This document shows positions 3,372 through 48,330 of a DNA stretch of 64,000 nucleotides, one piece after another. A program made the translations under genes and the position numbers. The stretch's first letter is position 1. Each line of letters starts with the position of its first letter. The notes under the pieces were generated by a model that was given only the letters and a program-made list of their open reading frames with translations, had not been told where the DNA came from and searched no databases. The DNA comes from Candidatus Aminicenantales bacterium (GTDB lineage: Bacteria > Acidobacteriota > Aminicenantia > Aminicenantales > UBA4085), in contig JBEKTZ010000004.1 in assembly GCA_049515535.1 (NCBI GenBank), positions 201,462 through 265,461 of the forward strand, read 5' to 3'.

Positions 3372-3596
3372 AGCATCAAACGCCAGATCCGGGATATTCA
3401 CGAGGCATTGGATGAAAAGGAAGTTTTTGTGTTAAAATGGCGGTTCGGATTGGATGACGATCAGCCCCTGACGCTCCGGGAGATCGGCGACAAGCTCCAC
3501 CTGACCAGGGAAGGCATCCGCCAGATCGAGCGGAAAGCGATGTACAAGCTGTCCCGGTCGAGAAAGCTTAGTCCATGGCGAGGAAATTTGAACTGA
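3372..3596 (+). CDS. Orphan ORF encoding only a sigma-70 region 4 (region 4.2 HTH) segment; possible sigma-factor remnant or small stand-alone region-4 protein
   Basis: The open frame SIKRQIRDIHEALDEKEVFVLKWRFGLDDDQPLTLREIGDKLHLTREGIRQIERKAMYKLSRS aligns to the RpoD C-terminus (VLxxRFGL...TLEEIGxxFxVTRERIRQIEAKALRKL). An in-frame stop lies at 3369-3371 and hspR ends at 3306. No sigma regions 1-3 can therefore be encoded upstream. The listed ORF uses a TTG start at 3408. Confidence 0.35.
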   Translation, partial: SIKRQIRDIHEALDEKEVFVLKWRFGLDDDQPLTLREIGDKLHLTREGIRQIERKAMYKLSRSRKLSPWRGNLN

Positions 3597-4357
3597 TGGC
3601 CGAGATAATTTGCTCCGCTTGCCAGGATACCGGCTGGGTCCTCGATGACGCGCAGGGCCACTCTCTGGCCAGACGATGTTCCTGCTTCATCGCCAAACAA
3701 GGCCGGATCCTGATTGCGAAGGCGAACATCCCAAAGCGCTATGAACGTTGCACGTTCGCCAATTTCGAGATCCACGATGAGACGCAGAGGGACGCCCTCA
3801 AAATATCCAAGAAAATGATCGAAAATTATCCCGTTCAGGAAATCGGGCTTCTTTTCATTGGTCCGCCGGGCGTCGGGAAAACGCATTTGGCCGTGGCCAT
3901 CCTGAATGAACTGATGAGCCGGAAAAACGCGGGCTGCGTGTTTTACGATTTCCGCGATCTCATCCGGGACATCCAAAGCACGTTCACCCCGGATTCGGTC
4001 CTCTCGGAATCCGATATCCTGGCGCCCGTATTCGAGAGCCAAGTGCTCGTCCTGGACGAATTAGGCGCGAAGAGGTCGTCGAGCTGGGTCGAAGAAACGA
4101 TATTTTATATCATCAACCACCGTTACAATCAAAAGAAAATGACGATCTTCACGTCGAATTTTCTCGATACGAGCGATGAAGAAGATCCGCGGCAGACGAT
4201 GTTCAAGAAGACCGATATCAACAAAAAGGGAGACGACTCGCTCGTCGACCGGATCGGCTACAGATTGAGATCCCGGCTTTATGAAATGTGCAAAGTCGTG
4301 GAAATTTCCGGAAAAGATTACCGCAAGATCGCCAAACAGGCCAGCTATCGGTTCTGA
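3575..4357 (+). CDS. DnaC/DnaI/IstB-like AAA+ ATPase (putative helicase loader) with N-terminal Cys cluster
   Basis: Walker A (GPPGVGKTHLAVAI) and Walker B (VLVLDELG) motifs are present, with the layout of DnaC-family loaders. An N-terminal CSACQDTGW...CSC cysteine cluster precedes them. The start overlaps the tail of the sigma-fragment ORF. Confidence 0.6.
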   Translation: MARKFELMAEIICSACQDTGWVLDDAQGHSLARRCSCFIAKQGRILIAKANIPKRYERCTFANFEIHDETQRDALKISKKMIENYPVQEIGLLFIGPPGVGKTHLAVAILNELMSRKNAGCVFYDFRDLIRDIQSTFTPDSVLSESDILAPVFESQVLVLDELGAKRSSSWVEETIFYIINHRYNQKKMTIFTSNFLDTSDEEDPRQTMFKKTDINKKGDDSLVDRIGYRLRSRLYEMCKVVEISGKDYRKIAKQASYRF

Positions 4358-14531: not shown

Positions 14532-15338
14532 ATGAAGAGAAAAGCCGCCGTCGCTGGATCTTTCTATCCCGGGAATCCTCAAGAACTTCGCCGAATGCTC
14601 AGCCGAATGGTCGATCTTGAAGCCCCAAAGACCAAGGCCCTGGCCGTGGTTTCGCCGCATGCCGGATTGATCTATTCCGGCCCAGTGGCCGGCGCGGTCT
14701 TCTCTTCCGTGGATCTGCCCGACACCATCCTCATCCTCGCGCCGAGTCACCGCCCGATGCGATCCCTCTTCGCCCTGATGAAGGATGGAGAGTGGGAAAC
14801 GCCGTTGGGGACCATCCCCGTCGCTTCCGGGCTGGCGGAGTCGATCCTGAACTCCTCGGATCTGGTGGCTACGGACTCGGCCGCCCATGCCCAGGAGCAT
14901 TCGCTCGAAGTCCAGCTCCCCTTCATCCAATACATCAAAACCCGATTTTCGATCGTCCCGATCAATATTTCGCATCTCGCCTCATACCGGGATCTGGAAG
15001 AACTGGGAGGAGGCATCGCCGCCGGTATCCTCGCTCAGAACGAGGAAGTGCTGATCGTCGCCAGCACGGATATGAGCCATTACGTCAGCCGGGCCGAAGC
15101 GGAACGGAAGGATTTCCTGGCCATCCGGAAAATCCTGGAACTCGATCCTAGAGGATTGTTCGACATCGTCGGATCCGAGGACATCAGCATGTGCGGCTAT
15201 CAGCCCGTCACGGCCGGTCTGATCGCGGCCAAGAAGCTCGGCGCGAAGAAGGCGGAACTCGTCAAATACGCGACGTCCGGCGACCGCACGGGAGATGATC
15301 GGGAAGTCGTCGGCTACGCCGGAATCAGGATTATCTAA
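14532..15338 (+). CDS. Memo1-like protein (AmmeMemoRadiSam system protein B family)
   Basis: GSFYPGNPQELRRML...AVVSPHAGLIYSGPVAGAVF is the conserved Memo/protein-B N-terminus. Confidence 0.7.
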   Translation: MKRKAAVAGSFYPGNPQELRRMLSRMVDLEAPKTKALAVVSPHAGLIYSGPVAGAVFSSVDLPDTILILAPSHRPMRSLFALMKDGEWETPLGTIPVASGLAESILNSSDLVATDSAAHAQEHSLEVQLPFIQYIKTRFSIVPINISHLASYRDLEELGGGIAAGILAQNEEVLIVASTDMSHYVSRAEAERKDFLAIRKILELDPRGLFDIVGSEDISMCGYQPVTAGLIAAKKLGAKKAELVKYATSGDRTGDDREVVGYAGIRII

Positions 15339-15396
15339 ACCCCCGGCCTTCATTGACTTCGCCTCGACTCCGGTTATAATATCCTACGGAACGATC

Positions 15397-16440
15397 ATGA
15401 AAAACCCCGGACTTCGAGACAAAGACAAGATCGTCCTGAAAGCGATCGTCGAGCATTATCTCAAGATCGGCAAACCTATCAGCTCGGGCTTCATTCATCA
15501 GAAAAGAGTTCTCTCCGATTCCCCCGCCAGCCTCAGGAACATCATGCTCAAGCTCGAGGAACTCGGTTTTCTTTCTCAGCCGCACGCTTCGGCCGGCCGG
15601 ATTCCGACGGATAAGGGCCTCCGTTTTTATGTCAACAGTCTCCTCGAGGAATCGCCGTTGTCGCTCGATCAAATGAGCCTTCTGACGAGCGATCTGTCCA
15701 TAAAGAAGGGGGACCTGAATTCGCTTCTTCATCGGATCTCGCTCCACCTGGCCGACCAGTCGGACAGCCTGGGTTTCGTCCTCTCGCCGCGCATCTCCAA
15801 GATCCATTTTCATCATCTCCGGTTCATCAAGATCGCCGAAAACAAGGTGATGATCATCCTTGTGACGTCGTTCAACGTCGTCCTGACGGAAATCGTTTCG
15901 ACGGAAACCTATTTCGACCAATCCGAGCTCGACCAGGCTTCGCAATACATCAACCAGAATTTTCACGGCAAGAACCTGCTGCTCGTCCGGGACCGCCTGC
16001 TCGGCGAGCTTCCCAAATATCAATCCAAGTTCGAGCAGGCGTTCAATAAGCTGATGTCCCTCATCAAGGACTCGATCGTTCAGGAAGACATGGAGAATCC
16101 CATCATCCTCCAGGGAACGGCCAGGCTCATCGATAAGTTCGAAACCTTCGACATGGCCAAAATGAAGTCGCTGTTCCAGAACTTCGAGGAAAAAGCCAAT
16201 CTGGCGAAGCTCCTTTCCGATTTCATATCCCTTGACCGGGTGAAAGTGCTCATCGGCTCCGAGTCCAACCTGCCGATCATTTCGGACTGTTCGCTCGTCC
16301 TCTCCCATTATGGAGACGAGAATCAGGTCATGGGCTCCCTGGGCATCATCGGGCCGAAGCGGATTCCCTATAAAAAGATCATTCCGCTCGTCGACAATGT
16401 CGCCAAAAGACTGAGCCGGACGATCAGCCAAAACCACTAG
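15397..16440 (+). CDS. hrcA: Heat-inducible transcription repressor HrcA
   Basis: Length and position directly upstream of grpE fit HrcA. N-terminal winged helix (KDKIVLKAIVEHYLKIGKPISSGFI). Start trimmed from the upstream-extended ORF to MKNPGLRDK. Confidence 0.75.
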   Translation: MKNPGLRDKDKIVLKAIVEHYLKIGKPISSGFIHQKRVLSDSPASLRNIMLKLEELGFLSQPHASAGRIPTDKGLRFYVNSLLEESPLSLDQMSLLTSDLSIKKGDLNSLLHRISLHLADQSDSLGFVLSPRISKIHFHHLRFIKIAENKVMIILVTSFNVVLTEIVSTETYFDQSELDQASQYINQNFHGKNLLLVRDRLLGELPKYQSKFEQAFNKLMSLIKDSIVQEDMENPIILQGTARLIDKFETFDMAKMKSLFQNFEEKANLAKLLSDFISLDRVKVLIGSESNLPIISDCSLVLSHYGDENQVMGSLGIIGPKRIPYKKIIPLVDNVAKRLSRTISQNH

Positions 16441-16457
16441 AGAAGGCGAAGGAACAC

Positions 16458-17153
16458 ATGGATATCGAAGACGAAAAAGAGCAGGAAGAAGATCCGGGGG
16501 AAGACACGGGACACCAGCCGGACGCGGATTCCGCCGGGGACGCCCCGGAAGACGAAAAAGAAAAGGGAACCGCGACGAAGAAGGCCGCGAGCGAAGAACA
16601 TGGCGGGCATGATCAACATGAAAAAGCGGATCATGAGGACGCTAAATCCTTGAAAGGAAAGCTCCGGAAGAAAGAGCATGAGATCAAAAACCACAAGGCG
16701 GAAATCGAGGAATTGAGAAAAGAGAAAGCCGAGATCAAAGATAAATTCCTCAGAGCGCTGGCCGAGATGGACAATCAGCGGAAGAGGCTCGAGCGGGAGA
16801 AGAGCGAGTTTTATCAGTTCGCTCTCAGCGATCTCCTCAAGGAAATATTGCTGGTTCTCGATAATTTCGAAAGAGCCCTGAAGAACAGGGATCAAACGGA
16901 TGACAAAAGCTTCCAAGAAGGCGTCGAGCTCATCTCTAAGCAGTTCCAAGATATGATCCGGAAACAAGGCCTGACTCCTGTCGGAGAGGAACATCAGAAA
17001 TTCGATCCCTCGGCCCACCATGCGGTCCTGACCGAAGAATCCGATCAAATCGATGAGCCGGAAATCGGCGAAGTGCTCCAGAAAGGCTACTTCCTCAACG
17101 ACCGGCTTCTCCGTCCCGCCCTGGTCAAAGTGATGGTTCCCAAAAAGAGCTAG
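16458..17153 (+). CDS. grpE: Nucleotide exchange factor GrpE
   Basis: Acidic N-terminus. Coiled-coil segment, then RALAEMDNQRKRLEREK...DLLKEILLVLDNFERAL and a C-terminal beta domain (GYFLNDRLLRPALVKV). Confidence 0.88.
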   Translation: MDIEDEKEQEEDPGEDTGHQPDADSAGDAPEDEKEKGTATKKAASEEHGGHDQHEKADHEDAKSLKGKLRKKEHEIKNHKAEIEELRKEKAEIKDKFLRALAEMDNQRKRLEREKSEFYQFALSDLLKEILLVLDNFERALKNRDQTDDKSFQEGVELISKQFQDMIRKQGLTPVGEEHQKFDPSAHHAVLTEESDQIDEPEIGEVLQKGYFLNDRLLRPALVKVMVPKKS

Positions 17154-17154
17154 A

Positions 17155-18723
17155 ATGGGCCCCATCATCGGCATCGATCTCGGCACGACGTATTCCTGCA
17201 TGGCCCACCTCGCGGGAGGGCAGCCGCGCGTCATTCCTAATCTGGAGGGGTCCACGACGACGCCGTCCATGGCGGCGTTCACGGCATCGGGGGATACCCT
17301 GATCGGGAGCATCGCCGCGAGACAGGCCGTCACGAATCCCGCAATGACGCTGTACGCCGTCAAGCGGCTGATCGGGAAAAAAGCGGGGTCTCCGGACGTC
17401 CAGAAAATCCGGAAGAGATTGCCGTACAAGCTGGCCGAAGCCCCGAACGGCGATGTCCTGATCGATATCGGGAACCGGATGATCACCCCCCAAGAGGTCT
17501 CGGCCTTGATCCTCGCCTACCTCAAGAGATGCGCCGAGTCCTATTTCGGCGAAGACATCATGGATGCGGTCATAACCGTCCCCGCGCATTTCGGCGATCA
17601 CCAAAGACAGGCGACCAAAGACGCCGCCGCCATCGCCGGGCTGAACGTCCTCCGTGTCATCAACGAGCCGACCGCCGCGAGCCTGGCCTTCGGCCTCGAC
17701 CAGAAGAAGAACGGCCGAGTGGCCGTCTTCGACATGGGCGGAGGGACGTTCGACATCACCCTGCTCGAGATCCATAACGGCGTGTTTCACATTCTTGCCA
17801 CGAACGGCGACTCCTTCCTTGGCGGCGAGGATTTCGACCAAAAAATCATCGACTGGTTCGTGGAAGAGGCGAAAAAAGAGCTTGGCATCGATCTCTCGGG
17901 CGACTTGTTCGCCCTGCAGAGAATCAAGGAGGCCGCGGAGCGGGCCAAGCGGGAGCTTTCGTTCACTCACGAAACCGAGATCAACCTGCCGTTCATCCAC
18001 GCCGCGCCGAGAGGTTCGGGTCATTTCCGCAAAGTGATATCGCGGTCCCTCCTTGAAAGCCTCACCGCGGATCTCGTCGAAAGGCCGTTTTCCCTGGTTG
18101 AACGGACTCTCGAAGAAAGCGGGCTCAAGCCGGGAGGGATCGACCACGTGATCCTCGTCGGAGGGCAGACGCGCATGCCGCTCGTCCGCGAGCGCGTTTC
18201 AAAATTCTTCAGGAAGAAAATTCACGAGCATGTCCATCCGGATGAAAGCGTCGCCCTGGGGGCGGCCATTCAATCCGGAATCCTGGAGGGAGAGCTGCGC
18301 GACCTTGTCCTGCTTCTGGACGTGACATCGTTCGCCCTCGGCATCGAGACCGAACGCGACGGCTACGAAAAAATCATCGAGAAGAACGCCACGATCCCCT
18401 TGAAGAAGGCCAAGGCCTTCACGACGGTCGAGAACAACCAGCGCCAAGTCAAAATCCATGTTTTGCAGGGCGACGGACCGCGCGCTTCGGACAGCGTGTC
18501 ATTGGCCAAGTTCGATCTCATCGGCCTTCTGCCGGCCCTGGCCGGAATCCCTCAAATCGACGTGACGTTCGAGATCGACGCGGACGGCCTGGTCAAGGTA
18601 TCGGCCAAGGATGCCTTGTCGGGCAAGGAGCAGAAGATCGTCGTCCGGCCCTCTTCGGGATTGAGCCGGCAGCAGATCAACAGCCTCCGGTTGAAGGCGC
18701 GGGATAAAGAGGCGAAGACGTAA
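17155..18723 (+). CDS. Hsp70-family chaperone paralog lacking the C-terminal alpha-helical lid (522 aa)
   Basis: Nucleotide-binding-domain motifs [24 protein letters not shown] and INEPTAAS, plus the interdomain linker LLLDVT and a beta-sandwich SBD. The protein ends ~25 aa after the SBD (...[23 protein letters not shown]), whereas the window's dnaK continues ~130 aa further. It sits in the dnaK position of an hrcA-grpE-X-dnaJ operon. Confidence 0.85.
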
Positions 18724-18727
18724 AGTC

Positions 18728-19858
18728 ATGGCCAAAAAAGATTATTATGAGGTGCTGGGGATTCCGCGGAGAGCCGCAGTCGACGACATAAAGAAAGCTT
18801 ACCGGCAAAAGGCATTGAAACACCATCCCGACCGCAACCCCGGGAATAAAGAAGCCGAGGAAATGTTCAAAGAAGCGGCCGAGGCGTATAGCGTCCTCGG
18901 CGATCCTCAAAAACGGTCCCTCTATGATCAGTACGGACCCGACGGACTCCGGGGCGAAGCGTTCTCGGGATTCAACGCGACGGTCTTCGAGGACTTCGAG
19001 GACATCCTCGGGAATATTTTCGGTTTTAATTTCGGCTTCGGGGATGTTTTCGGCTCCGGAACGAGACAGAGAGGCTCCTCGTCCCAACGCGGCCGGGATC
19101 TGGCTCTGGAGATAGAAATCACGCTCGAAGAGGCCGCGGCAGGCGTCGCCAAGGACATTTCCCTCCACCGGGCGGAGCCTTGTCCTTCGTGTCAGGGAAC
19201 GAAGTTGCGGCCGGGAACAAAGAAATCGATCTGTTCTTCATGCGGCGGCCGCGGGCAGATCCGCCATCATCAGGGTTTCTTCACGTTGGCAAGGACCTGT
19301 CCGCAATGCGGAGGGAGCGGAGACATCATCGCCACGCCTTGCGATGAATGCCGCGGGACTGGCCACATGCGGCAAAAAAAAGCGCTGAATGTCCGAATTC
19401 CGGCGGGTATCGATAACGGATCCCGGCTCCGTATCCAGGGGGAGGGGGAAGCCGGGGACGGGGAGGGGAGAAGGGGAGATCTTTACATCGCCATCAAGGT
19501 CATGACGCACGATTTCTTCGTGCGTGAGCAGAATCATCTGTATTGCGAAATCTCGATCGCGTTTGTCCAAGCCGCGCTTGGCGTAACCATCGAAGTTCCC
19601 ACGCTCGAAGGCGCCGAGAAGCTCAAGATTCCCCCCGGCACGCAATCCGGCGAGGTTTTCCGGTTAAAGGGCCGGGGGATCAAAGACCTGGAGAGCCGAA
19701 GGCTCGGCGACTTGCTCGTCAAGATTCAAGTGAAAACCCCGGAAGACCTGTCCAAGGAACAAAAGGGCGTGTTGCGCCAGCTGGCCGAGTTGCGCGCTGA
19801 AAATCTGGATTTCATCGACCGGGAGACCGTGATGAAAGAAAGACGTCGCGTCCATTAG
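18728..19858 (+). CDS. dnaJ: Co-chaperone DnaJ (second copy)
   Basis: J domain DYYEVLGI...HHPDRNP, a G/F region and four CxxCxGxG zinc-finger repeats. It starts 5 nt after the Hsp70 paralog. Confidence 0.9.
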
Positions 19859-40402: not shown

Positions 40403-41209
40403 TTATTGGTGCTGTTTGAGCTTAGAAATCAAATCTTCGAGGATACGGATGATTTCCTGCCTGTTGACCGATTCCTTTTTGAATTCAATGCGAAGGCTGA
40501 AAGATCGATCTTCCTTCGGACTATAATTAAAAACATAAGATTTCTGTTTCTTCTTGTCTGCGTCCTTACTTTTCAGGAGTTTGGTCAAGTCGCGGGTGTC
40601 CTCTCTTTTTAAACCTCGCTCTTTTATATTGTCGAGGAGCGATGTCATTTCGTTCTCATTCTTGAGTTTGGAAATCTCGATCAAAATGCTTCGATTTTTA
40701 TCTAATGAATGGGTTTGGCAAAGACGGCGTATCGAAGCGGGTATCTTGCTGATGTTGATGATTTCCGTAATGGTGGATCGCGCTTTGCCGATTTTCTCGG
40801 AAATTTGGCTATGGCTATAACCATAGGTATCCATTAAAGCCTTTAACCCGTCCGCTTCTTCGAAGATGTCAAGGTCTTTGCGCTGAAGATTCTCTATCAG
40901 CGAGATTTCCATGGCCTCGTTATCAGTCGCGTTCATTTCAATACAGGGTATGTCCTTGAGGGCCGCGTTTTTGGATGCCACATAGCGGCGTTCTCCGGCG
41001 ATGATCTCGTATTTATCGCCCTTGGGACGGACGATGATCGGCTCCAGAACCCCCTTGGCTTTGATCGACGTCACCAACTCTTCGATATTTCCTAGCTCGC
41101 TGCGCGCTTGGCGGGGGTTAGGCTCAATGCGATCCAACGCAATGAGGCGTAACAGCGGAGCGCTGGCTTTTTTGGAAATGAACTCGACGAAATGCGTGTC
41201 ATGCCGCAT
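40403..41209 (-). CDS. parB: ParB/Spo0J-family partition protein with divergent C-terminal region
   Basis: ParB N-terminal box (LEPIIVRPKGDKYEIIAGERRYVAS, GxRR motif) and an HTH (SHSQISEKIGKARSTITEII). The C-terminal ~110 aa are Lys/Glu-rich and not recognisably Spo0J-like. Start trimmed to MRHDTHF just after the parA stop. Confidence 0.75.
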   Translation of the reverse strand: MRHDTHFVEFISKKASAPLLRLIALDRIEPNPRQARSELGNIEELVTSIKAKGVLEPIIVRPKGDKYEIIAGERRYVASKNAALKDIPCIEMNATDNEAMEISLIENLQRKDLDIFEEADGLKALMDTYGYSHSQISEKIGKARSTITEIINISKIPASIRRLCQTHSLDKNRSILIEISKLKNENEMTSLLDNIKERGLKREDTRDLTKLLKSKDADKKKQKSYVFNYSPKEDRSFSLRIEFKKESVNRQEIIRILEDLISKLKQHQ

Positions 41210-41237
41210 TCCGATGGTGTCCGGAAGTCCTGATCGT

Positions 41238-42002
41238 TTAGTTTTTTGCACGGTCCAAAATCTCCTCGGCCACTTTTTTGTATTGGAGAGAGCCGATCGA
41301 AGCGGCCGCATAAGTGAAGATCGATTCCTTATAAGCCGGGCTTTCTTCAAGCTTGACGCTCTTAGAGATATGGGTATGAAAGACTTTTTCGCCGAAGACG
41401 CGTTGAATGCGCTCGACCACGTCTCTAGCGATATTTGTCCGGGTATCATGCAAAGTGATCAAAACCCCGAGGATTTGGAGTCCGGGATTCGCTACTCGTC
41501 TCACCTTCTCGATCGTCTCGAGAAGATCATCCGTCCCCTCGAGACTGAGGAACGATGATTGAATAGGAATCAGGAGATGTGATGCCGCCACCAAGGCATT
41601 CAAGGTAATCAAGCCGAGCGTCGGCGGCGTATCGATGAAGATGAAATCATAGCGTTCGCGGATCGGCTCGATGATGTCTTTCAAACGAAAATGCCCGTCA
41701 ATCTGACCCAGCAAAGACGCTTCAAGTTTGGCCATGGATGTCCTGGCGATGGCGACATCCAAACCTGGGACAGTGGATTTCATGATCACGCTTTGGATTT
41801 TCATTTCAGGACGCATGAGAACATCATAAAGAGACATTTCGCTGCGATCAGGATCTTTGACGCAGAACTTTGTGCTATGGCCCTGAGAATCGGTATCGAC
41901 AAGGAGAATGCGGCAGCCGCTGAGCGCTAAAGCGGCCGATACATTGACGGCTGTCGTGGTCTTGCCGACTCCCCCTTTCTGATTGGTTATGGCGACGATC
42001 AC
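41238..42002 (-). CDS. parA: ParA/Soj-family partition ATPase
   Basis: Deviant Walker A NQKGGVGKTTTAVNVSAALA, Walker A' LLVDTDSQ and Walker B FIFIDTPP. Confidence 0.88.
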   Translation of the reverse strand: MIVAITNQKGGVGKTTTAVNVSAALALSGCRILLVDTDSQGHSTKFCVKDPDRSEMSLYDVLMRPEMKIQSVIMKSTVPGLDVAIARTSMAKLEASLLGQIDGHFRLKDIIEPIRERYDFIFIDTPPTLGLITLNALVAASHLLIPIQSSFLSLEGTDDLLETIEKVRRVANPGLQILGVLITLHDTRTNIARDVVERIQRVFGEKVFHTHISKSVKLEESPAYKESIFTYAAASIGSLQYKKVAEEILDRAKN

Positions 42003-42395
42003 AATTCATGACTCCGAAAAATTTCTTGAGGATACATTTTAAAAAAACCCTGAACTACCATAACGAATATCGCCGAAAAGTTCAAGCTTTTATTTTTGGG
42101 GATGTCGGCCGGCCGACATTTGATGTAACTGTCGAGATATCAAATAATTAGGAGATAAATAGTGACGAGCGGCGAGAACGGGATTCACGGAATAAAAGAA
42201 AAATGGTTCGAAGATATCGCCAAAGGGAGTTCATCCGGCGCCTGATTTTTTCAGATCGATTTATAATACAATTAATCTATAGGAATAGTAATATATTATT
42301 GAAGTCTCTGCTATCTTTGCATATAATGCGTTGGAGAAAATTGAAAAGAATTTTATGAGTCATTCACGATGATAAAAATTTCATAATAAGGCTGG
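42003..42395. other. ~390-bp AT-rich divergent intergenic region between parA (-) and the permease (+)
   Basis: Low GC and no ORF of 60 aa or more. It contains the 18-bp palindrome at 42102-42119 and AT-rich stretches that could serve as promoters. Confidence 0.6.
42102..42119. repeat. Perfect 18-bp palindrome ATGTCGGCCGGCCGACAT about 100 bp upstream of parA; candidate centromere-like or operator site
   Basis: Read directly from the sequence. It is GC-rich and embedded in an AT-rich promoter region. It does not match the canonical parS (TGTTNCACGTGNAACA). Confidence 0.5.
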
Positions 42396-43787
42396 TTGAT
42401 TTTGAATGAGCTCGATCGAAAACTTGGCCTTGCGGATTCCGTTTTCCTCGTTATAGGATCCGTTTTTGGATCCGGCATTTTTCTCACAACCGGCATCATA
42501 GCCGGCTATATTCCCTCTCCGGGTCTGATCTGTATCGTTTGGATTCTCGGAGGAGTCCTGACTCTGTTGGGGGCCTTGGCTTATGCCGAACTCGGAACAT
42601 TATTTCCCGGGGCGGGAGGACCTTACATCTATCTCAGAGAAGCCTACGGCCCATCGGTCTCATTTCTTTACGGCTGGACGTTTTTTTGGGTGATAGGAGG
42701 AGGAGGGATCGCCGCGCTGGCCATGGGGTTCGCCGAATATGCAGGGGTCCTGGTTCCTGGACTATCAGCCGATAAACTTCTTCTAGATTCAGGCCTCGGA
42801 CCGATCAAAGTTCATTTGACCGGCGCCCACTTCACGGCCGTTTTTTCGATCGTGGTTCTTTCCTTGCTCAACCTTTTCGGTGTCAAATCAGGGGTCCTCT
42901 TCCAGAACTTCATGACGGTCTTGCGCTTCCTTGCCCTGGGCGCTTTTGTCGCTTTCGGTCTCGTTCTCGGACGCCATCCCGGCCTGCTTAATCTGCATCC
43001 GCTATTTCCGAAAGGCCCTCTCCCCTCCTGGACTTTGTTCGGCGCCGCCTTCTTGGCCGTCGTATGGACCTATGACGGTTGGTATTCCGTGAACTGCGCC
43101 GCGGAAGAAGTCCGGAACCCGCAACGAACGATTCCTCGCTCGCTTGTCCTGGGCACGATAGCTGTTACCGTGCTTTATTTGATGGCCAATATGGTTTATA
43201 GTATAGCTCTTCCGGTGGAGAATATGCGTGGTGTCGTCCGGATCGGTGAACTCGCGGCTCTCCGTCTTTTCGGGCCCGGCAGCGCCCTGTTTTTTTCGGC
43301 CTTGATCGCCGTCGCTATTCTAGGTTGCCTGAGCGCGAATATTCTGTACTGCCCTCGAGTCTCATTCGCCATGGCTCGGGACGGCTTATTCTTCAAAAGT
43401 CTCTCGGTCGTCCATCCCCGGAAACGCGTTCCTTCGAACGCCATCCTGGCCCAGATGATCTGGTCGAGCTTGCTCTGCTTTTCAGGAACGTATCAGGGCC
43501 TCATCGAATATGTGGCCTTCGCCCTGGTCCTCTTCTTTGCCGCCACGGGCTTTTCCGTGTTCGTTCTCCGGCGGAAGATGCCGGAGCGGGAACGTCCCTT
43601 CCGGACATGGGGATATCCCGTTTTACCGGCTCTTTACATCGTCTCCAACTCGGCCATTTTCTTTGCCGTGATCATAGCCCGGCCGCTCCAGGCCTTGGCC
43701 GGAGCGATCCTGATCGCGGCCGGTCTGCCGGCGTATTTGCTCTGGATGAAAAACAAGCGGATCCGCGCCGATGGAGCAAGGGCATGA
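42396..43787 (+). CDS. APC-superfamily amino acid/polyamine permease
   Basis: 12 predicted TM helices and the N-terminal APC motif GSVFGSGIFLTTGIIAGY. TTG start as listed. Confidence 0.8.
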   Translation: MILNELDRKLGLADSVFLVIGSVFGSGIFLTTGIIAGYIPSPGLICIVWILGGVLTLLGALAYAELGTLFPGAGGPYIYLREAYGPSVSFLYGWTFFWVIGGGGIAALAMGFAEYAGVLVPGLSADKLLLDSGLGPIKVHLTGAHFTAVFSIVVLSLLNLFGVKSGVLFQNFMTVLRFLALGAFVAFGLVLGRHPGLLNLHPLFPKGPLPSWTLFGAAFLAVVWTYDGWYSVNCAAEEVRNPQRTIPRSLVLGTIAVTVLYLMANMVYSIALPVENMRGVVRIGELAALRLFGPGSALFFSALIAVAILGCLSANILYCPRVSFAMARDGLFFKSLSVVHPRKRVPSNAILAQMIWSSLLCFSGTYQGLIEYVAFALVLFFAATGFSVFVLRRKMPERERPFRTWGYPVLPALYIVSNSAIFFAVIIARPLQALAGAILIAAGLPAYLLWMKNKRIRADGARA

Positions 43788-45556
43788 GACGCGTCGTGAA
43801 AGTTCTTCCGGAAGGACTGGATTTGAGAGCCGCACCGGGCGAACTTCTGTCCGATGTCATGGAGAGAGCCGGTATCCCCCTCAGCTTGTATTGCGGGCGC
43901 CGGGGCTTATGCGGCAAATGCCGCGTCGAAATCGTCCGCGGAGCGATTCCTGAGGCGGATGAATTCGAGCGAAGTCTCATGGCGCGAGGGAGTCTTCCCA
44001 AAAACCATCGTCTCGCCTGCCGCTTCCATGTCGATAGCGATGTGTCTGTCCGCGTTCCTCCGGGATCTCGGATCCTCCAAATGCCCGTATTGAGCCGGGG
44101 AACCGGACGCTCCGTCGCGTTGGCTCCCGCCATAAAAAAAATAAGGTTCTCCTTATCGAGACCCGGCCTTGTCTCCGCCGATAGCGTCTTGGATTCGATC
44201 CATCTCCAATTCCCCGGGATCGCGCTTCGCGGGCCCTCTCTGGAAACGTTGCGGCGATTGTCCCGCCACGCTCTCGTGGAAAGCGGGCCGGCCAGAGACA
44301 TGACCGCTGTCATCCATGCCGATGCAGAATTGCTCGATATAGAGCCGGGAGACACAACCGCCAGGAATTTCGGCCTTGCCATTGACCTGGGAACGACGAC
44401 CGTCGTCGTCGAACTCCTGGATTTGAACTCGGGGACCTCTCTGGGCTCAGTGACCGGGCTCAACGCTCAGGCCCAATTCGGAACCGACGTCGTGTCGAGA
44501 ATCACGGCGGCTTATATGGACGCGGGAAAACTCAAGGAACTGCGCGCCTCCGTCGTCGCGGGCCTCAACGCCATGATCGGCGTGTTGATCGCTGAAAATC
44601 AGGTGTCTTCGGACGCCGTGTATGAAACGGTCCTGGCCGGCAATACGGCCATGAACCACCTCTTTCTCGGCCTGTCCGTCGCGACACTGGCCGTCGCTCC
44701 CTATCATGCCGTCTTCAGCGTCCTCCCGGCGCTTCCGTCGGCCGAGACGGGGCTCACCGTCAACCCTCTCGGAAAAGTTTATCTCGCTCCCAACATAAAA
44801 AGTTTTGTCGGCGGAGACATCGCCGCCGGACTGGCCGCGGTCGGCATGGACCGTCAAAAAGGAAATTTCCTTTTCGTCGATTTAGGAACGAACGGGGAAA
44901 TCGTCATCAAAAAAGGGACCCGTTTTACGACAACGTCGACGGCCGCCGGACCCGCTTTCGAAGGAATGGCGATCGGTTGCGGCATGCTCGCTCTTCCCGG
45001 CGCCGTTTATAAGGCCCACTATGGAAAAAATCTGATGATTGAGACTATCGGCGGGTTGCCGGCGCGCGGCATCTGCGGCACGGGCCTCATCGACCTCGTG
45101 GCAGGCGCCTTGGACAAAGGCCTCGTTTCTTCCCGGGGAAATGTCCTGAATCCATCCAGGACAATCGCCGTCACGAAGGATATCTCCTTGATCCAGAAGG
45201 ATATCCGCGAGATCCAATTGGCCGTCGCGGCCATAAAGACGGGCATCCGGATGTTGCTCGGGGAGAACAGGATGACGACCGGAGATCTTGACGGCATTTA
45301 CGTAGCCGGAGCGTTCGGAAATTACCTCAGCATTGATAACGCCGTGAAGCTTGGCCTTCTCCCCCGTTTCAACCGCCGTAAGATCCATTTCGTCGGCAAT
45401 ACCTCGGTGGCCGGGGCCAAGGCCCTCCTCTTGTCGCTCTCCGAACGGAGGCGCTGTGAGAAAATGGCTCAAAAAATTCGTCATGTCAGTTTGGCAAAGG
45501 GCGACGAATTTCAAGCGGCCTTCGTCGAAGCGCTGGAGTTCAAAGCCTGGAGTTGA
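43785..45556 (+). CDS. RACo-type reductive activator of corrinoid proteins (plant-type 2Fe-2S ferredoxin domain plus ASKHA ATPase domain)
   Basis: N-terminal ferredoxin Cys pattern YCGRRGLCGKCRV...LACRF. The C-terminal region has ASKHA motifs (LAIDLGTTT, FVDLGTNGEIV, AGAFGNYL). The ATG overlaps the permease stop (ATGA). Confidence 0.65.
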
Positions 45557-45592
45557 GTCAGGAACGCAAATTCCGCCTGAAGGAGTCTTTCC

Positions 45593-46258
45593 ATGGAATT
45601 GAAGAATCGTCTGTTGCGAATGATGGCCGCGGCCATCGTCGAAGGTGACAAGGAAACGGCCGAAGTCCTGGCCAGGAAAGCCTTGGCCGAGAAGCTCGAT
45701 CTCCACGAGGTCATCGATAAAGGATATCTCCCGGGCATCCAAAAAGTCGGCGAACTCTGGGAGAAGGGGGAGTATTTCCTGCCCGAGCTCATCACCAGCG
45801 CCGAATGCATGAAGGCGGCCATGGCCGTTCTCAGACCGTCGCTGGAAGCCTCCCACGCGAACAGCTTGTCCCGTGGAAAAATCGTTATCGGGACGATCGA
45901 AGGCGATATTCACGATATCGGGAAGAACCTGGTCGCGTCGATGCTCTCGGCCAATGGGTTCGAAGTCATGGATCTGGGCGCCGACGTCAAGCTGACCCGA
46001 TTCATCGATAAAGCCCAGGAAACGCAGGCGGAGATCATCTGCCTGTCCGCCCTGCTCACGACAACGATGCTCAATCAGGGGCGTCTGATCGAACTGCTCA
46101 AGGAGCGCGGACTTCGCGAACGGTTTAAAGTGCTCGTGGGCGGCGCCCCTGTGACGCGGAAATGGGCGGCGGATATCGGGGCGGACGGCTACGGGGAAAA
46201 CGCGCCGAGCGCCGTCAAACTAGCCCTGGAGATCAGCCCGAAAAGAGGCCAATTATGA
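45593..46258 (+). CDS. Cobalamin-binding corrinoid protein (B12-binding domain with N-terminal helical cap)
   Basis: DxHxxG motif (GDIHDIGKN) followed by a Rossmann-like B12-binding fold. Layout matches MtmC/MtbC/MtgC-type methyl carriers. Confidence 0.75.
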   Translation: MELKNRLLRMMAAAIVEGDKETAEVLARKALAEKLDLHEVIDKGYLPGIQKVGELWEKGEYFLPELITSAECMKAAMAVLRPSLEASHANSLSRGKIVIGTIEGDIHDIGKNLVASMLSANGFEVMDLGADVKLTRFIDKAQETQAEIICLSALLTTTMLNQGRLIELLKERGLRERFKVLVGGAPVTRKWAADIGADGYGENAPSAVKLALEISPKRGQL

Positions 46259-47724
46259 TCCGGGCCAAGCGTCCCAAGGTCGAGCTCCTCAGCCGGACGT
46301 TCGTCGAGAAGATCATCGGTGAAGCTCTGCTTCTCCTGGAGCGGCAAGGCGTATTTGTCGAGAACGCGGAAGCCCGCGCGCTCTTCAAGCTCGCGGGAAT
46401 GTCCGTTGACGAAACGCATTTCCGGGTCCTTATCCGACAAAAGCTCATCGAGGAATCCCTTGCCTCGACGCCGTCGGCCTTTAAAATCTATGACCGCTCG
46501 GGAAAAAAGGCCTTTACCATAGGACGCGATCATGTCCATTTTGACCCGGGCTCGGCGGCCGTCAAAATCCTTGACCATACGACGCGGCAGGAAAGGAGGC
46601 CCGAGACGGGCGACTTGATCCGGCTGTCCCGGCTGACCGAGGCCTGCGAGCACATCCATTTTCAAAGCACCGCTCTCGTCAGCGGCGATGTCCCGGAGAA
46701 TATCGCCGACAGCTATCGGCTTTTCCTCAGCCTGCAATTCTCATCCAAACCGATCGTGACCGGAACGTTCCGGACGACGGGTTTCCGGCCGATGTTCGAG
46801 ATGCTGGCCGCCGTCCGCGGCGGGAGCGACGAGCTCCGGCGAAAACCGCTGGCCATATTCGACGCCTGCCCCTCCCCTCCCCTGAAATGGAGCAACCTGA
46901 CCGCGCAGAGCCTCATTGACTGCGCCCGGGCCGGTATTCCTTCCGAACTCATTTCCATGGGACTGACGGGCGCGACCTCTCCGGTAACGATTGCCGGCAC
47001 ACTCGTTCAGCACGTGGCCGAGAACCTGGCCGGTCTGGCGATCTGCCAGCTCGCGGGCAAGGGCGTGCCCGTGATCTTCGGCGGTTCGCCGGCAAGCTTC
47101 GACATGCGCAAAGGCACGACGCCCATGGGGGCGATCGAAACGATGATGATCGATATGTCCTATGCTCAAATCGGAAAACACCTCGGCCTTCCGACGCACG
47201 CTTATATGGGTCTGAGCGACGCCAAGATCAACGACTCGCAATCCGGATTGGAAACGAGCATGGGCGCCGTCCTCGCGGCGCTGGCCGGCATCAACGTCGT
47301 ATCTGGCGCCGGGATGGTGGATTTCGAGAGCGCGCAGAGCCTCGAAAAAATTCTGATCGACAATGAAATCTGCGGCATGGCCTACCGGCTAATCGAGGGG
47401 GTCGCCCAGCGTGATGAACCCCTGGCTCTGTCCCTTTTTGAGAAGCTCGGTCCGGAAAGCCAGTTCCTGACCATGCCCCATACGCGGAAATGGTACAGGA
47501 TCGAACACATGCTAACGTCCTTGGCCGATCGCGATACTTATGACGCCTGGGCCGCGCAGGGCGCGAAATCCATGGCCGATAGGGCGCACGAGCGTATCGA
47601 CCAGATCCTCGGCGGGACCGCCCCGAACCTGCTGAGTTATGACCTTCAGAAAGAACTCCGGAGGATCATGCTCGACGACGCCGTGATCAACGGATCCGGA
47701 AGCCTTCCGGAGATCCGGTTTTAA
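46255..47724 (+). CDS. MttB-superfamily methyltransferase, non-pyrrolysine member (quaternary amine:corrinoid methyltransferase-like)
   Basis: About 490 aa with MttB-like TIM-barrel layout and no in-frame amber codon. Its start overlaps the corrinoid-protein stop (ATGA). The methyl-donor substrate cannot be determined from sequence. Confidence 0.65.
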   Translation: MIRAKRPKVELLSRTFVEKIIGEALLLLERQGVFVENAEARALFKLAGMSVDETHFRVLIRQKLIEESLASTPSAFKIYDRSGKKAFTIGRDHVHFDPGSAAVKILDHTTRQERRPETGDLIRLSRLTEACEHIHFQSTALVSGDVPENIADSYRLFLSLQFSSKPIVTGTFRTTGFRPMFEMLAAVRGGSDELRRKPLAIFDACPSPPLKWSNLTAQSLIDCARAGIPSELISMGLTGATSPVTIAGTLVQHVAENLAGLAICQLAGKGVPVIFGGSPASFDMRKGTTPMGAIETMMIDMSYAQIGKHLGLPTHAYMGLSDAKINDSQSGLETSMGAVLAALAGINVVSGAGMVDFESAQSLEKILIDNEICGMAYRLIEGVAQRDEPLALSLFEKLGPESQFLTMPHTRKWYRIEHMLTSLADRDTYDAWAAQGAKSMADRAHERIDQILGGTAPNLLSYDLQKELRRIMLDDAVINGSGSLPEIRF

Positions 47725-48330
47725 GTGAACGAGCAGGTCATTCTCGGCGATTTCTCGTTTCGCTGGGACCACGATAAGATCCTGGTTCGAATCGGGTGCA
47801 AGGGCGGAAGAAGGGCGGCGGCCCCTTCTCTCCTTGCCCTCCTTGAGGAAATAGAGACGAAGCTTCCCGATCTGCTTAGGCCAAGGGGGGCGTATACGAT
47901 TATCGGTCACGAACAAACGAACGGGCATGGCGTCTTCGACAAAGCGGTCTTGGTCGCCCTTGGCCTCGTCACAGCCGGACCGATGATCGAGGCGGCATGC
48001 GAGAAATCATTCCAACAGGGCGATCCGATCAGCGGGCTCGTCTTGGATGCCTTCGGGACGGACGCGATCGTTCAAATCTTCAAGCAGACCGAGCGCCGCA
48101 TCGTCGAAGAGGCCTTACGGCGCGGCCTATGGCCGAGCAAGAGATTCTCGCCGGGATATCGCGGCTGGCCGCTCGAAGAACAGCGGTTTCTCTTTGGGAA
48201 GATCGACGCCTCGGCCATCGGCGTGCGCCTCAACGAATCGTGCATGATGGTTCCGCGCAAATCGAATTCCTTTCGGATCAATTTCTACGCCGACCGGAGC
48301 CTAACGAGCCGCCGCCTGGAAAAAGAATAG
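47725..48330 (+). CDS. Stand-alone homolog of the methionine synthase (MetH) reactivation / AdoMet-binding domain
   Basis: KRFSPGYRGWPLEEQRFLFGKIDAS resembles the conserved RxxPGYPxxPDHTEKxxLFxLLDA core of the MetH activation domain. The GTG start directly abuts the upstream stop. Confidence 0.5.
   Translation: MNEQVILGDFSFRWDHDKILVRIGCKGGRRAAAPSLLALLEEIETKLPDLLRPRGAYTIIGHEQTNGHGVFDKAVLVALGLVTAGPMIEAACEKSFQQGDPISGLVLDAFGTDAIVQIFKQTERRIVEEALRRGLWPSKRFSPGYRGWPLEEQRFLFGKIDASAIGVRLNESCMMVPRKSNSFRINFYADRSLTSRRLEKE

Follow-up and report, generated by a model that had tools for sequence, protein, structure and literature searches.

The chromosomal centromere parS is regarded as nearly the same in all bacteria. 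What, then, does ParB bind at a chromosomal parAB operon where no recognizable copy of that site is present? The question is raised by a 64,000-nt stretch of contig JBEKTZ010000004.1 from a Candidatus Aminicenantales bacterium (hereafter the window, meaning the whole stretch analysed), in which canonical parS (TGTTNCACGTGNAACA) has no match at two or fewer mismatches and a perfect 18-bp palindrome, ATGTCGGCCGGCCGACAT, lies upstream of parA. We find that the core of this palindrome, TGTCGGC-NN-GCCGACA, is conserved at parAB loci across Acidobacteriota, and we propose that it is probably the parS of a ParB lineage found throughout the phylum, including this Aminicenantes genome. That ParB binds the site at all, whether as a centromere or solely as an operator, is likelier still.

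A palindrome conserved at acidobacterial parAB loci

The first-pass annotation of the window described a perfect 18-bp palindrome in a low-GC spacer about 100 bp upstream of parA and noted that it differs from canonical parS. All of this agrees with the sequence. The palindrome is separated from the parA start codon by 99 nt and lies within a 393-nt spacer (42003-42395) of 35% GC (34% minus the palindrome) in a window of 55% GC, and it shares 8 of the 14 specified bases of TGTTNCACGTGNAACA. It is the sole match in the 64-kb window, with no further copy even at 3 mismatches, and its 7-nt half-sites occur at chance frequency (11 observed, ~10 expected). The FseI site GGCCGGCC, which is nested in the palindrome, is found 5 times in the window. 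The palindrome is not unusual by itself, because at least one perfect 18-bp palindrome (9-nt arms) was present in 37% of the windows generated by 200 dinucleotide-preserving shuffles. The window alone gives the palindrome no significance; cross-genome conservation does, and the earlier emphasis on this element holds on that ground and not on its rarity.

To survey related loci we used a ParB-alignment scan with one genome per GTDB species, yielding 80 loci from Aminicenantes and other Acidobacteriota classes. When the 350 nt upstream of parA were scanned blindly for palindromes, TGTCGGC-NN-GCCGACA emerged in nearly all Aminicenantes loci containing the parA upstream region; exact-pattern matching followed, and also located the motif of one locus (L014) beyond the scanned 350 nt. 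Of the 30 Aminicenantes loci that include this region, 29 have a perfect motif, and L015 has one with a single mismatch. The motif occurs in one or two copies some 50-390 nt ahead of the parA start. Thermoanaerobaculia (L062, L070) and one Multivoradales genome (L059) also have it upstream of parA. The 14 arm bases are invariant in all perfect instances (55/55), and the centre is variously CG, AT, GT/AC, GC, CT or TG. Palindromy extends past 16 bp by mostly 0-2 nt. The unit under constraint is the 16-mer with a free central dinucleotide, which corrects the 18-bp extent given in the first-pass annotation. Since the centre varies, the FseI site nested in the window copy is incidental, which argues against the palindrome being a restriction-site coincidence. 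The Aminicenantes spacers around the motif are unalignable, and locus GC ranges from ~35 to 70%.

The upstream neighbour of parA in many loci is a divergent permease-RACo operon. Where this operon is replaced, often by co-directional genes (encoding a ferredoxin-like protein, BNR/sortilin proteins, an SDR or a CoA transferase), the motif remains upstream of parA. Because it stays when the neighbour is swapped, the motif belongs to parA and not to the neighbouring operon. We had also considered control of the divergent permease-RACo-corrinoid-MttB operon, and ruled it out on the same observation. The lack of further copies, which the first-pass annotation would have counted against a ParB site, is borne out in the window yet uninformative: Aminicenantes loci have just one or two copies, all at parA.

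In Vicinamibacteria, Blastocatellia, Chloracidobacterium and others, the identical 16-mer is found ~516 nt into parB, ~1.3 kb downstream of the parA start, where it codes C-R-[L/R]-A-D. The motif codons TGT, CGG, GCC and GAC are identical in 16/16 loci with an intragenic copy, whereas all other tabulated degenerate columns for invariant residues in a 318-nt segment around the site vary (15/15), including the Ile codon right after the motif. The invariance of the motif codons among varying neighbours therefore reflects selection on the DNA itself. In five of the loci with an intragenic copy, a convergent gene follows parB, which leaves no promoter downstream of the site. Canonical parS likewise lies inside spo0J of B. 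subtilis.

Four par loci have 2-3 copies (L010, L025, L176, L177). An intragenic copy is combined with one or two upstream of parA in L176, L177 and the pair L046/L047 (1-mismatch copy). In other classes, some loci contain extra copies within 10 kb of parAB, adjoining unrelated housekeeping genes (accA, gcvT, glyS or TPR genes); those of L045 and L049 are located in the gap after accA, facing an opposite-strand gene. Apart from this distribution, four intergenic copies (L045 3713, L049 3708, L055 221, L005 5777) lie within longer perfect palindromes, up to 48 bp in length, and their flanks are not the same from locus to locus. The L049 and L055 long-palindrome copies are followed by T-runs and look terminator-like, a feature that a ParB site does not explain.

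At two or fewer mismatches, canonical parS has no match in 76 of the 80 genome loci; matches occur in the homologous pair L046/L047 (1 mismatch), in L055 and in L061 (2 mismatches in each of the last two). The 1-mismatch site of the pair, TGTTGCACGTGAAATA, is found ~2.3 kb upstream of parA (L046 6415, L047 6964) in related Blastocatellia that also carry the new motif; it may be a chance match, with ~0.2 expected over all loci by our own estimate. Around parAB, a search for repeat arrays or iterons found just short repeats at chance level, and a second conserved palindrome was not found.

The candidate ParB partner and a proposed mechanism

Judged by their sequences, ParA and ParB of the window are bona fide chromosomal types. 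ParA (MIVAITNQKGGVGKTT) has the deviant Walker A motif KGGVGKT at its very start, lacks an N-terminal helix-turn-helix (HTH) extension and is therefore not itself a site-specific operator binder. The parA gene call agrees between two contigs. The ParB_N domain of the adjacent ParB has the CTPase-type motifs NPRQAR, GERRYVA and ENLQRKDL, and the closest PDB match of the protein is Thermus Spo0J (E = 1.4e-35). ParB homologues at 70-82% identity are annotated as Candidatus Aminicenantes, in which the gene order lon-rho-x-parB-parA is conserved. The locus has several elements of a chromosomal ParABS system: a deviant-Walker-A ParA next to a ParB_N + HTH ParB in which GERR, ENLQR and NPxQxR are present, and a short palindrome at or near the par operon that is conserved among orthologous loci across Acidobacteriota.

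The HTH region of the window ParB aligns gap-free to Thermus Spo0J, Myxococcus ParB and Noc, and differs from them in its recognition helix. The window protein reads G-K-A-R-S-T-I-T-E-I-I-N-I-S-K-I-P where the reference proteins read GK-x-[RQ]-S-T-[VI]-A-N-x-L-R-L-L-x-L-P. Acidobacterial proteins have GKxRSxxTE in place of GKxRSxxAN, with T-E in 80/80 loci. In Caulobacter ParB numbering, which we take to apply here and which was assigned by segment offsets in the match to 6t1f rather than by a residue-by-residue alignment, R173 is kept, N178 is replaced by E, R181 by N, A184 by K and Q162 by H. G170 and K171 are also kept, and the GHAR segment (201-204) is N-R-S or S-K-S. The residues Q162, G170, K171, S172, N178 and R204 are reported to contact parS and to be conserved in ~1,800 ParB and ~400 Noc orthologues (PMC7383237); as a set they are not preserved in the acidobacterial protein. 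The pattern of changes fits altered specificity rather than lost DNA binding. Outside the HTH region, the third arginine of the 'arginine patch' GERRxRA (GERRYVA in the window, ~40990-41010, − strand) is V/I/M in Aminicenantes, H in Acidiferrales-type proteins and R in Vicinamibacteria/Blastocatellia, a change that may affect CTP binding or spreading.

The altered ParB would not be expected to read canonical parS, canonical parS is absent, and another 16-mer, present in 1-3 copies and irrespective of promoter context, is conserved where parS is typically found; as the simplest account, we therefore read this 16-mer as the candidate acidobacterial parS. This would be the non-canonical centromere and/or par-operon operator that the first-pass annotation had envisaged, and the phylum-wide conservation at parAB, the DNA-level selection inside parB, the missing canonical site and the altered helix all argue for it.

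An exact-pattern scan of JGI metagenomes returned at least 120 matches, and the figures that follow are for the 120 matches listed. In 28 of them the motif is located inside parB or just upstream of parA of the same type, and the unusual helix is present in 26/26 of the adjacent ParB HTH regions recovered. Many of the remaining listed matches have a GC centre and aaa/ttt flanks and are found beside unrelated housekeeping genes, with paired copies 185-361 bp apart in L087 and L181. Five GC-centre copies (L095, L199, L201, L150, L179) share the extended flank ACTTTAAA-TGTCGGCGCGCCGACA-TTT beside unrelated genes (fumarase, ribBA, PPDK, others). The shared flank hints at a longer consensus in some lineage, which may be that of the Terriglobia-type genomes without the motif at parAB.

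At the predicted parA promoter, the −35 hexamer is separated from the palindrome by an A-rich 17-nt tract, which places the palindrome centre at about −61. The promoter was read by eye and scores 8/12, under the scan cut-off of 9/12; corresponding hexamers are footprinted in L003, L004, L006 and L009 (TTGAAT/TTGATT/TTGTCA/TTGCAT, then TATCGT/TATTCT/TATTTT). Across the predicted promoters in relatives the motif-to-−35 spacing is 17, 17, 18, 22 and 35 nt, a variability that argues against strict helical phasing.

On the other side of the palindrome the window has a perfect match to the IHF consensus. A comparable element is found in the orthologous flanks (L003-L034, L062, L070), perfect in 11/32 and with one or fewer mismatches in 24/32 (shuffled flanks, 0.5% and 15.5%), at a fixed distance of ~19-21 nt from the palindrome in most loci. 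Loci with a co-directional upstream gene have the element too, so it is not simply a divergent promoter. We suggest, with low confidence, an accessory bending site comparable to that of P1 parS; alternatively, the element may belong to a promoter.

These features suggest how the system might work. A ParB dimer would read the two 7-bp arms via its remodelled HTH and ignore the central 2 bp. Its CTPase-type N-terminal domain (GERR, ENLQR) would then close ParB into a clamp that slides onto flanking DNA, and the adjacent Soj-type ParA would move the resulting ParB-DNA complex. An additional effect on the parA promoter is probable: in Aminicenantes, ParB loading 17 nt upstream of the predicted −35 would probably tune parAB transcription, and the site may then be both centromere and operator. 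A precedent for such autoregulation is P. aeruginosa ParB, which represses genes at the intergenic sites parS3/parS4 (PMC7022226).

A fuller evolutionary scenario, on which we are evenly divided, is that Acidobacteriota swapped the near-universal centromere. A ParB with H162, E178 and a remodelled alpha6 would read TGTCGGC-NN-GCCGACA, not TGTTNCACGTGNAACA, in convergence with the CooA operator. The site, intragenic to parB in Vicinamibacteria, Blastocatellia and Chloracidobacterium, would have relocated to the parA promoter in Aminicenantes and Thermoanaerobaculia, where together with the IHF-consensus element it would form a single-site composite centromere/operator.

Competing explanations for the palindrome

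Several observations weigh against the palindrome being parS. The annotated parts of the window show neither of the origin markers dnaA and dnaN, and ~72 kb of this genome (the window plus L203) contain a single copy of the motif. Acidiferrales-type loci have no motif within 10 kb of parAB despite their unusual ParB helix, and a de novo search for another shared palindrome in these motif-less loci found nothing common. The other adverse points involve the CRP/FNR family. The motif exactly matches the published consensus, TGTCGGCNNGCCGACA, of CooA, a CO-sensing CRP/FNR activator of Rhodospirillum and Desulfovibrio, and the D. vulgaris cooSC site is TGTCGGCTAGCCGACA (PMC545781). By the predicted promoter, the position of the palindrome centre resembles that of class I CRP-type sites. 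The A/T-rich flanks (aaaTGTCGGC..GCCGACAttt) resemble the 22-bp CRP consensus. Among the metagenome matches listed, three adjoin CRP-family genes whose products have the recognition helix R-Q-[ST]-[TV]-N; all are on high-GC contigs, with the motif 120-150 nt upstream of the gene in L118 (2915) and L153 (1667) and adjacent to it in L155 (327).

The CRP/FNR-related points make up the main rival to our reading, in which the palindrome would be the operator of a CRP/FNR-family factor with CooA-like specificity, activating or repressing the parAB promoter from ~−61 in a class I-like arrangement, with ParB binding elsewhere. Several extra sites upstream of diverse metabolic genes would suit a global regulator, and CRP-type control of parAB is conceivable in Aminicenantes, where the site is always promoter-proximal. 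We nevertheless consider this explanation unlikely. The synonymously constrained copies inside parB, followed by a convergent gene in several classes, are not promoter sites, and neither are the L045 and L049 copies between opposite-strand genes. The variable motif-to-−35 distance at the predicted promoters argues against strict helical phasing. No coo or CRP/FNR genes were found in the window, and the neighbours of the other copies are unrelated to coo/cooA-type genes. CRP-family genes occur near parA only in L007 and L013, where they encode an FNR-like helix, S-[EA]-T-L-S-R, unlike R-Q-x-x-N of L118, L153 and L155. A CRP-type operator would also leave the missing parS and the altered ParB helix unexplained. 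As for the L118, L153 and L155 copies, they probably do function as operators of the CooA-like or another CRP type, and so represent an independent use of the palindrome.

A narrower role for ParB is that it binds the site merely as an autoregulatory operator of parAB, the segregation centromere being a different sequence elsewhere, for example near oriC. The single copy beside a promoter in the Aminicenantes lineage suits this role, as does the absence of origin markers from the annotated window parts. KorB is a ParB-family protein that acts as an operator-bound repressor, and P. aeruginosa ParB at parS3/parS4 acts similarly (PMC7022226). In other classes, however, the site is inside parB or between opposite-strand genes and cannot be an operator. 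One ParB HTH should read one sequence, and by the ParB-CTP mechanism a specifically bound site would be expected to load clamps; a second conserved palindrome did not emerge near parAB. We regard a purely regulatory role as improbable.

Least probable of all is a chance or structural feature without a specific binder, such as a hairpin or terminator, a cluster of FseI sites (GGCCGGCC) or a REP/MITE-like repeat. The frequency of perfect 18-bp palindromes in shuffled windows agrees with chance, the T-runs after the L049 and L055 copies agree with a structural role, and an IS200-like Y1 transposase gene lies close to the L142 copy. Against these stand the 14 arm bases, invariant across the phylum while the would-be loop or FseI centre varies, and this conservation pattern effectively refutes a chance or structural origin. 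The terminator scan made no call at the palindrome, there is no T-run there, and the site sits between a promoter and a divergent gene; a search of Rfam with the whole window and the spacer at E ≤ 1 returned two tRNAs only. With arms fixed around a variable centre and no Rfam family, we rejected an intrinsic terminator or structured RNA. A hairpin requirement was ruled out by the short extension of the palindrome past 16 bp, and a dispersed REP/MITE-like palindrome by the copy number and placement, with a single copy in this 64-kb window and 1-3 copies in a 20-kb locus, always at parAB. A centromere read by ParB remains our preferred explanation.

The locus and its relation to known systems

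Table 1. Features of the parAB locus, in window coordinates.
Feature	Position	Strand	Description
parB	40403-41251	−	282 aa, GTG start, 14-nt overlap with parA stop; ParB_N + HTH_ParB (Pfam)
ParB recognition helix			GKARSTITEIINISKIP
parA	41238-42002	−	Soj/ParA-type Walker ATPase, 254 aa, GTG start; Pfam AAA_31 (E = 3.6e-53), CbiA, MipZ
Ribosome-binding site	42012-42015	−	GGAG, 9 nt upstream of parA GTG
Predicted parA promoter	42057-42085	−	−35 TTGAAC (42085-42080), 17-nt spacer, −10 TATGGT (42062-42057)
Perfect 18-bp palindrome	42102-42119	.	ATGTCGGCCGGCCGACAT; proposed acidobacterial parS
Conserved 16-mer core	42103-42118		TGTCGGC-CG-GCCGACA; 14 invariant bases + variable central dinucleotide
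Proposed ParB-binding sequence			TGTCGGCCGGCCGACA
IHF-consensus element	42138-42150	+	TATCAAATAATTA; perfect match to WATCAANNNNTTR, 19 nt from palindrome, side away from parA
Amino-acid permease gene	42396-43787	+	far side of spacer from parA

The spacer also contains, in the permease leader, a 27-codon open reading frame (VTSGENGIHGIKEKWFEDIAKGSSSGA, 42162-42245, + strand) with AGGAG ahead of it and GGCGCC plus T6 after it; it has no Pfam or Rfam match. The permease gene begins a cluster (42396-48330, + strand) encoding the permease, a RACo-type corrinoid activase (Fer2/Raco_middle/RACo_C_ter), a B12-binding corrinoid protein, an MttB-family methyltransferase and a 201-aa protein. These genes look like a pathway of corrinoid-dependent methyl transfer for a quaternary amine, and many Aminicenantes share their synteny with parA. 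The second perfect 18-bp palindrome of the window, AAAAGGAAATTTCCTTTT (44857-44874), is located within the region of the RACo-like gene.

The parAB genes (40403-42002 in the window; L001-L034) are 1-13 GC points under their flanks in every Aminicenantes locus, across genome GC contents of 35-70%. The dip is absent in most other classes, with a smaller one in Vicinamibacteria and Thermoanaerobaculia loci. Low parAB GC is a lineage trait, and recent horizontal acquisition was ruled out as its cause because the dip is found in every Aminicenantes locus.

Farther from parAB, the window has two separate dnaK-dnaJ pairs on the + strand (11-2900 and 15295-19858), one followed by a MerR/HspR-like gene and the other downstream of hrcA (15295-16440). 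At ~3400-4357 on the + strand (L203 11630-12579), a small Sigma70_r4-only open reading frame precedes an IstB/IS21-like AAA ATPase with a weak Bac_DnaA hit; no adjoining IstA transposase gene was called.

The components of this ParABS system are of a known kind, and the specificity pair appears undescribed; a literature search of incomplete coverage found no paper on an acidobacterial parS. If the proposal is correct, acidobacterial ParB would represent a second natural endpoint, besides Noc, for the evolution of ParB specificity, and would explain why searches with the canonical parS consensus would miss these genomes. The pair would also offer an orthogonal ParB/parS combination for DNA labelling. 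The 16-mer is a simple marker for the partition locus in acidobacterial metagenome-assembled genomes.

Like canonical ParB/Spo0J-parS, the acidobacterial system pairs a Soj-type ParA and a ParB_N + HTH ParB with a 16-bp palindrome that starts with TGT, ends with ACA and is located at or inside parAB. The two sites differ in where they are free: at positions 5 and 12 in TGTTNCACGTGNAACA, whose central CG is conserved, and at the centre in the acidobacterial site. The proteins differ as well: canonical ParB has A-N, Q162 and GHAR, and acidobacterial ParB has T-E, H162 and a replaced GHAR, with the third R of GERRxRA changed to V/I/M in Aminicenantes.

Among plasmid centromeres, the sopC unit of the F plasmid, bound by SopB, likewise has 7-bp inverted arms around a 2-bp centre, and P1 parS combines ParB boxes with an IHF site, as the palindrome is combined with an IHF-consensus element here. 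Both differ from the acidobacterial site in sequence, in being plasmid centromeres downstream of parB and in working with a large ParA that has an operator-binding HTH. The parC/parH-type iterons of type Ib plasmids were considered and rejected: there is no repeat array, the partner is a large HTH ParB and not a ribbon-helix-helix protein, and the position upstream of parA is all that is shared. The OB sites of KorB (RK2) provide another likeness, in that a ParB-family site just upstream of a promoter can regulate transcription. The same holds for parS3/parS4 of P. aeruginosa (PMC7022226); regulation at the acidobacterial site, by contrast, is suggested by its position alone.

The CooA operator of R. 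rubrum and of the Desulfovibrio coo promoters has the identical consensus TGTCGGCNNGCCGACA (PMC545781), and differs in context: it is found at CO dehydrogenase/hydrogenase operons, whereas the acidobacterial site is found at parAB with constrained intragenic copies. Most likely, two HTH families that are unrelated to each other arrived at the shared palindrome by convergence. Noc and its site NBS (ATTTCCCGGGAAAT) illustrate how few changes in the ParB HTH region suffice to re-target the protein to another palindrome (PMC7383237). Noc, like acidobacterial ParB, has Lys at position 184. Noc keeps N178 and Q162 and changes R173 to Q, whereas acidobacterial ParB keeps R173 and changes N178 and Q162; and Noc is a ParB paralogue, whereas the acidobacterial protein is the ParA-linked ParB orthologue itself.

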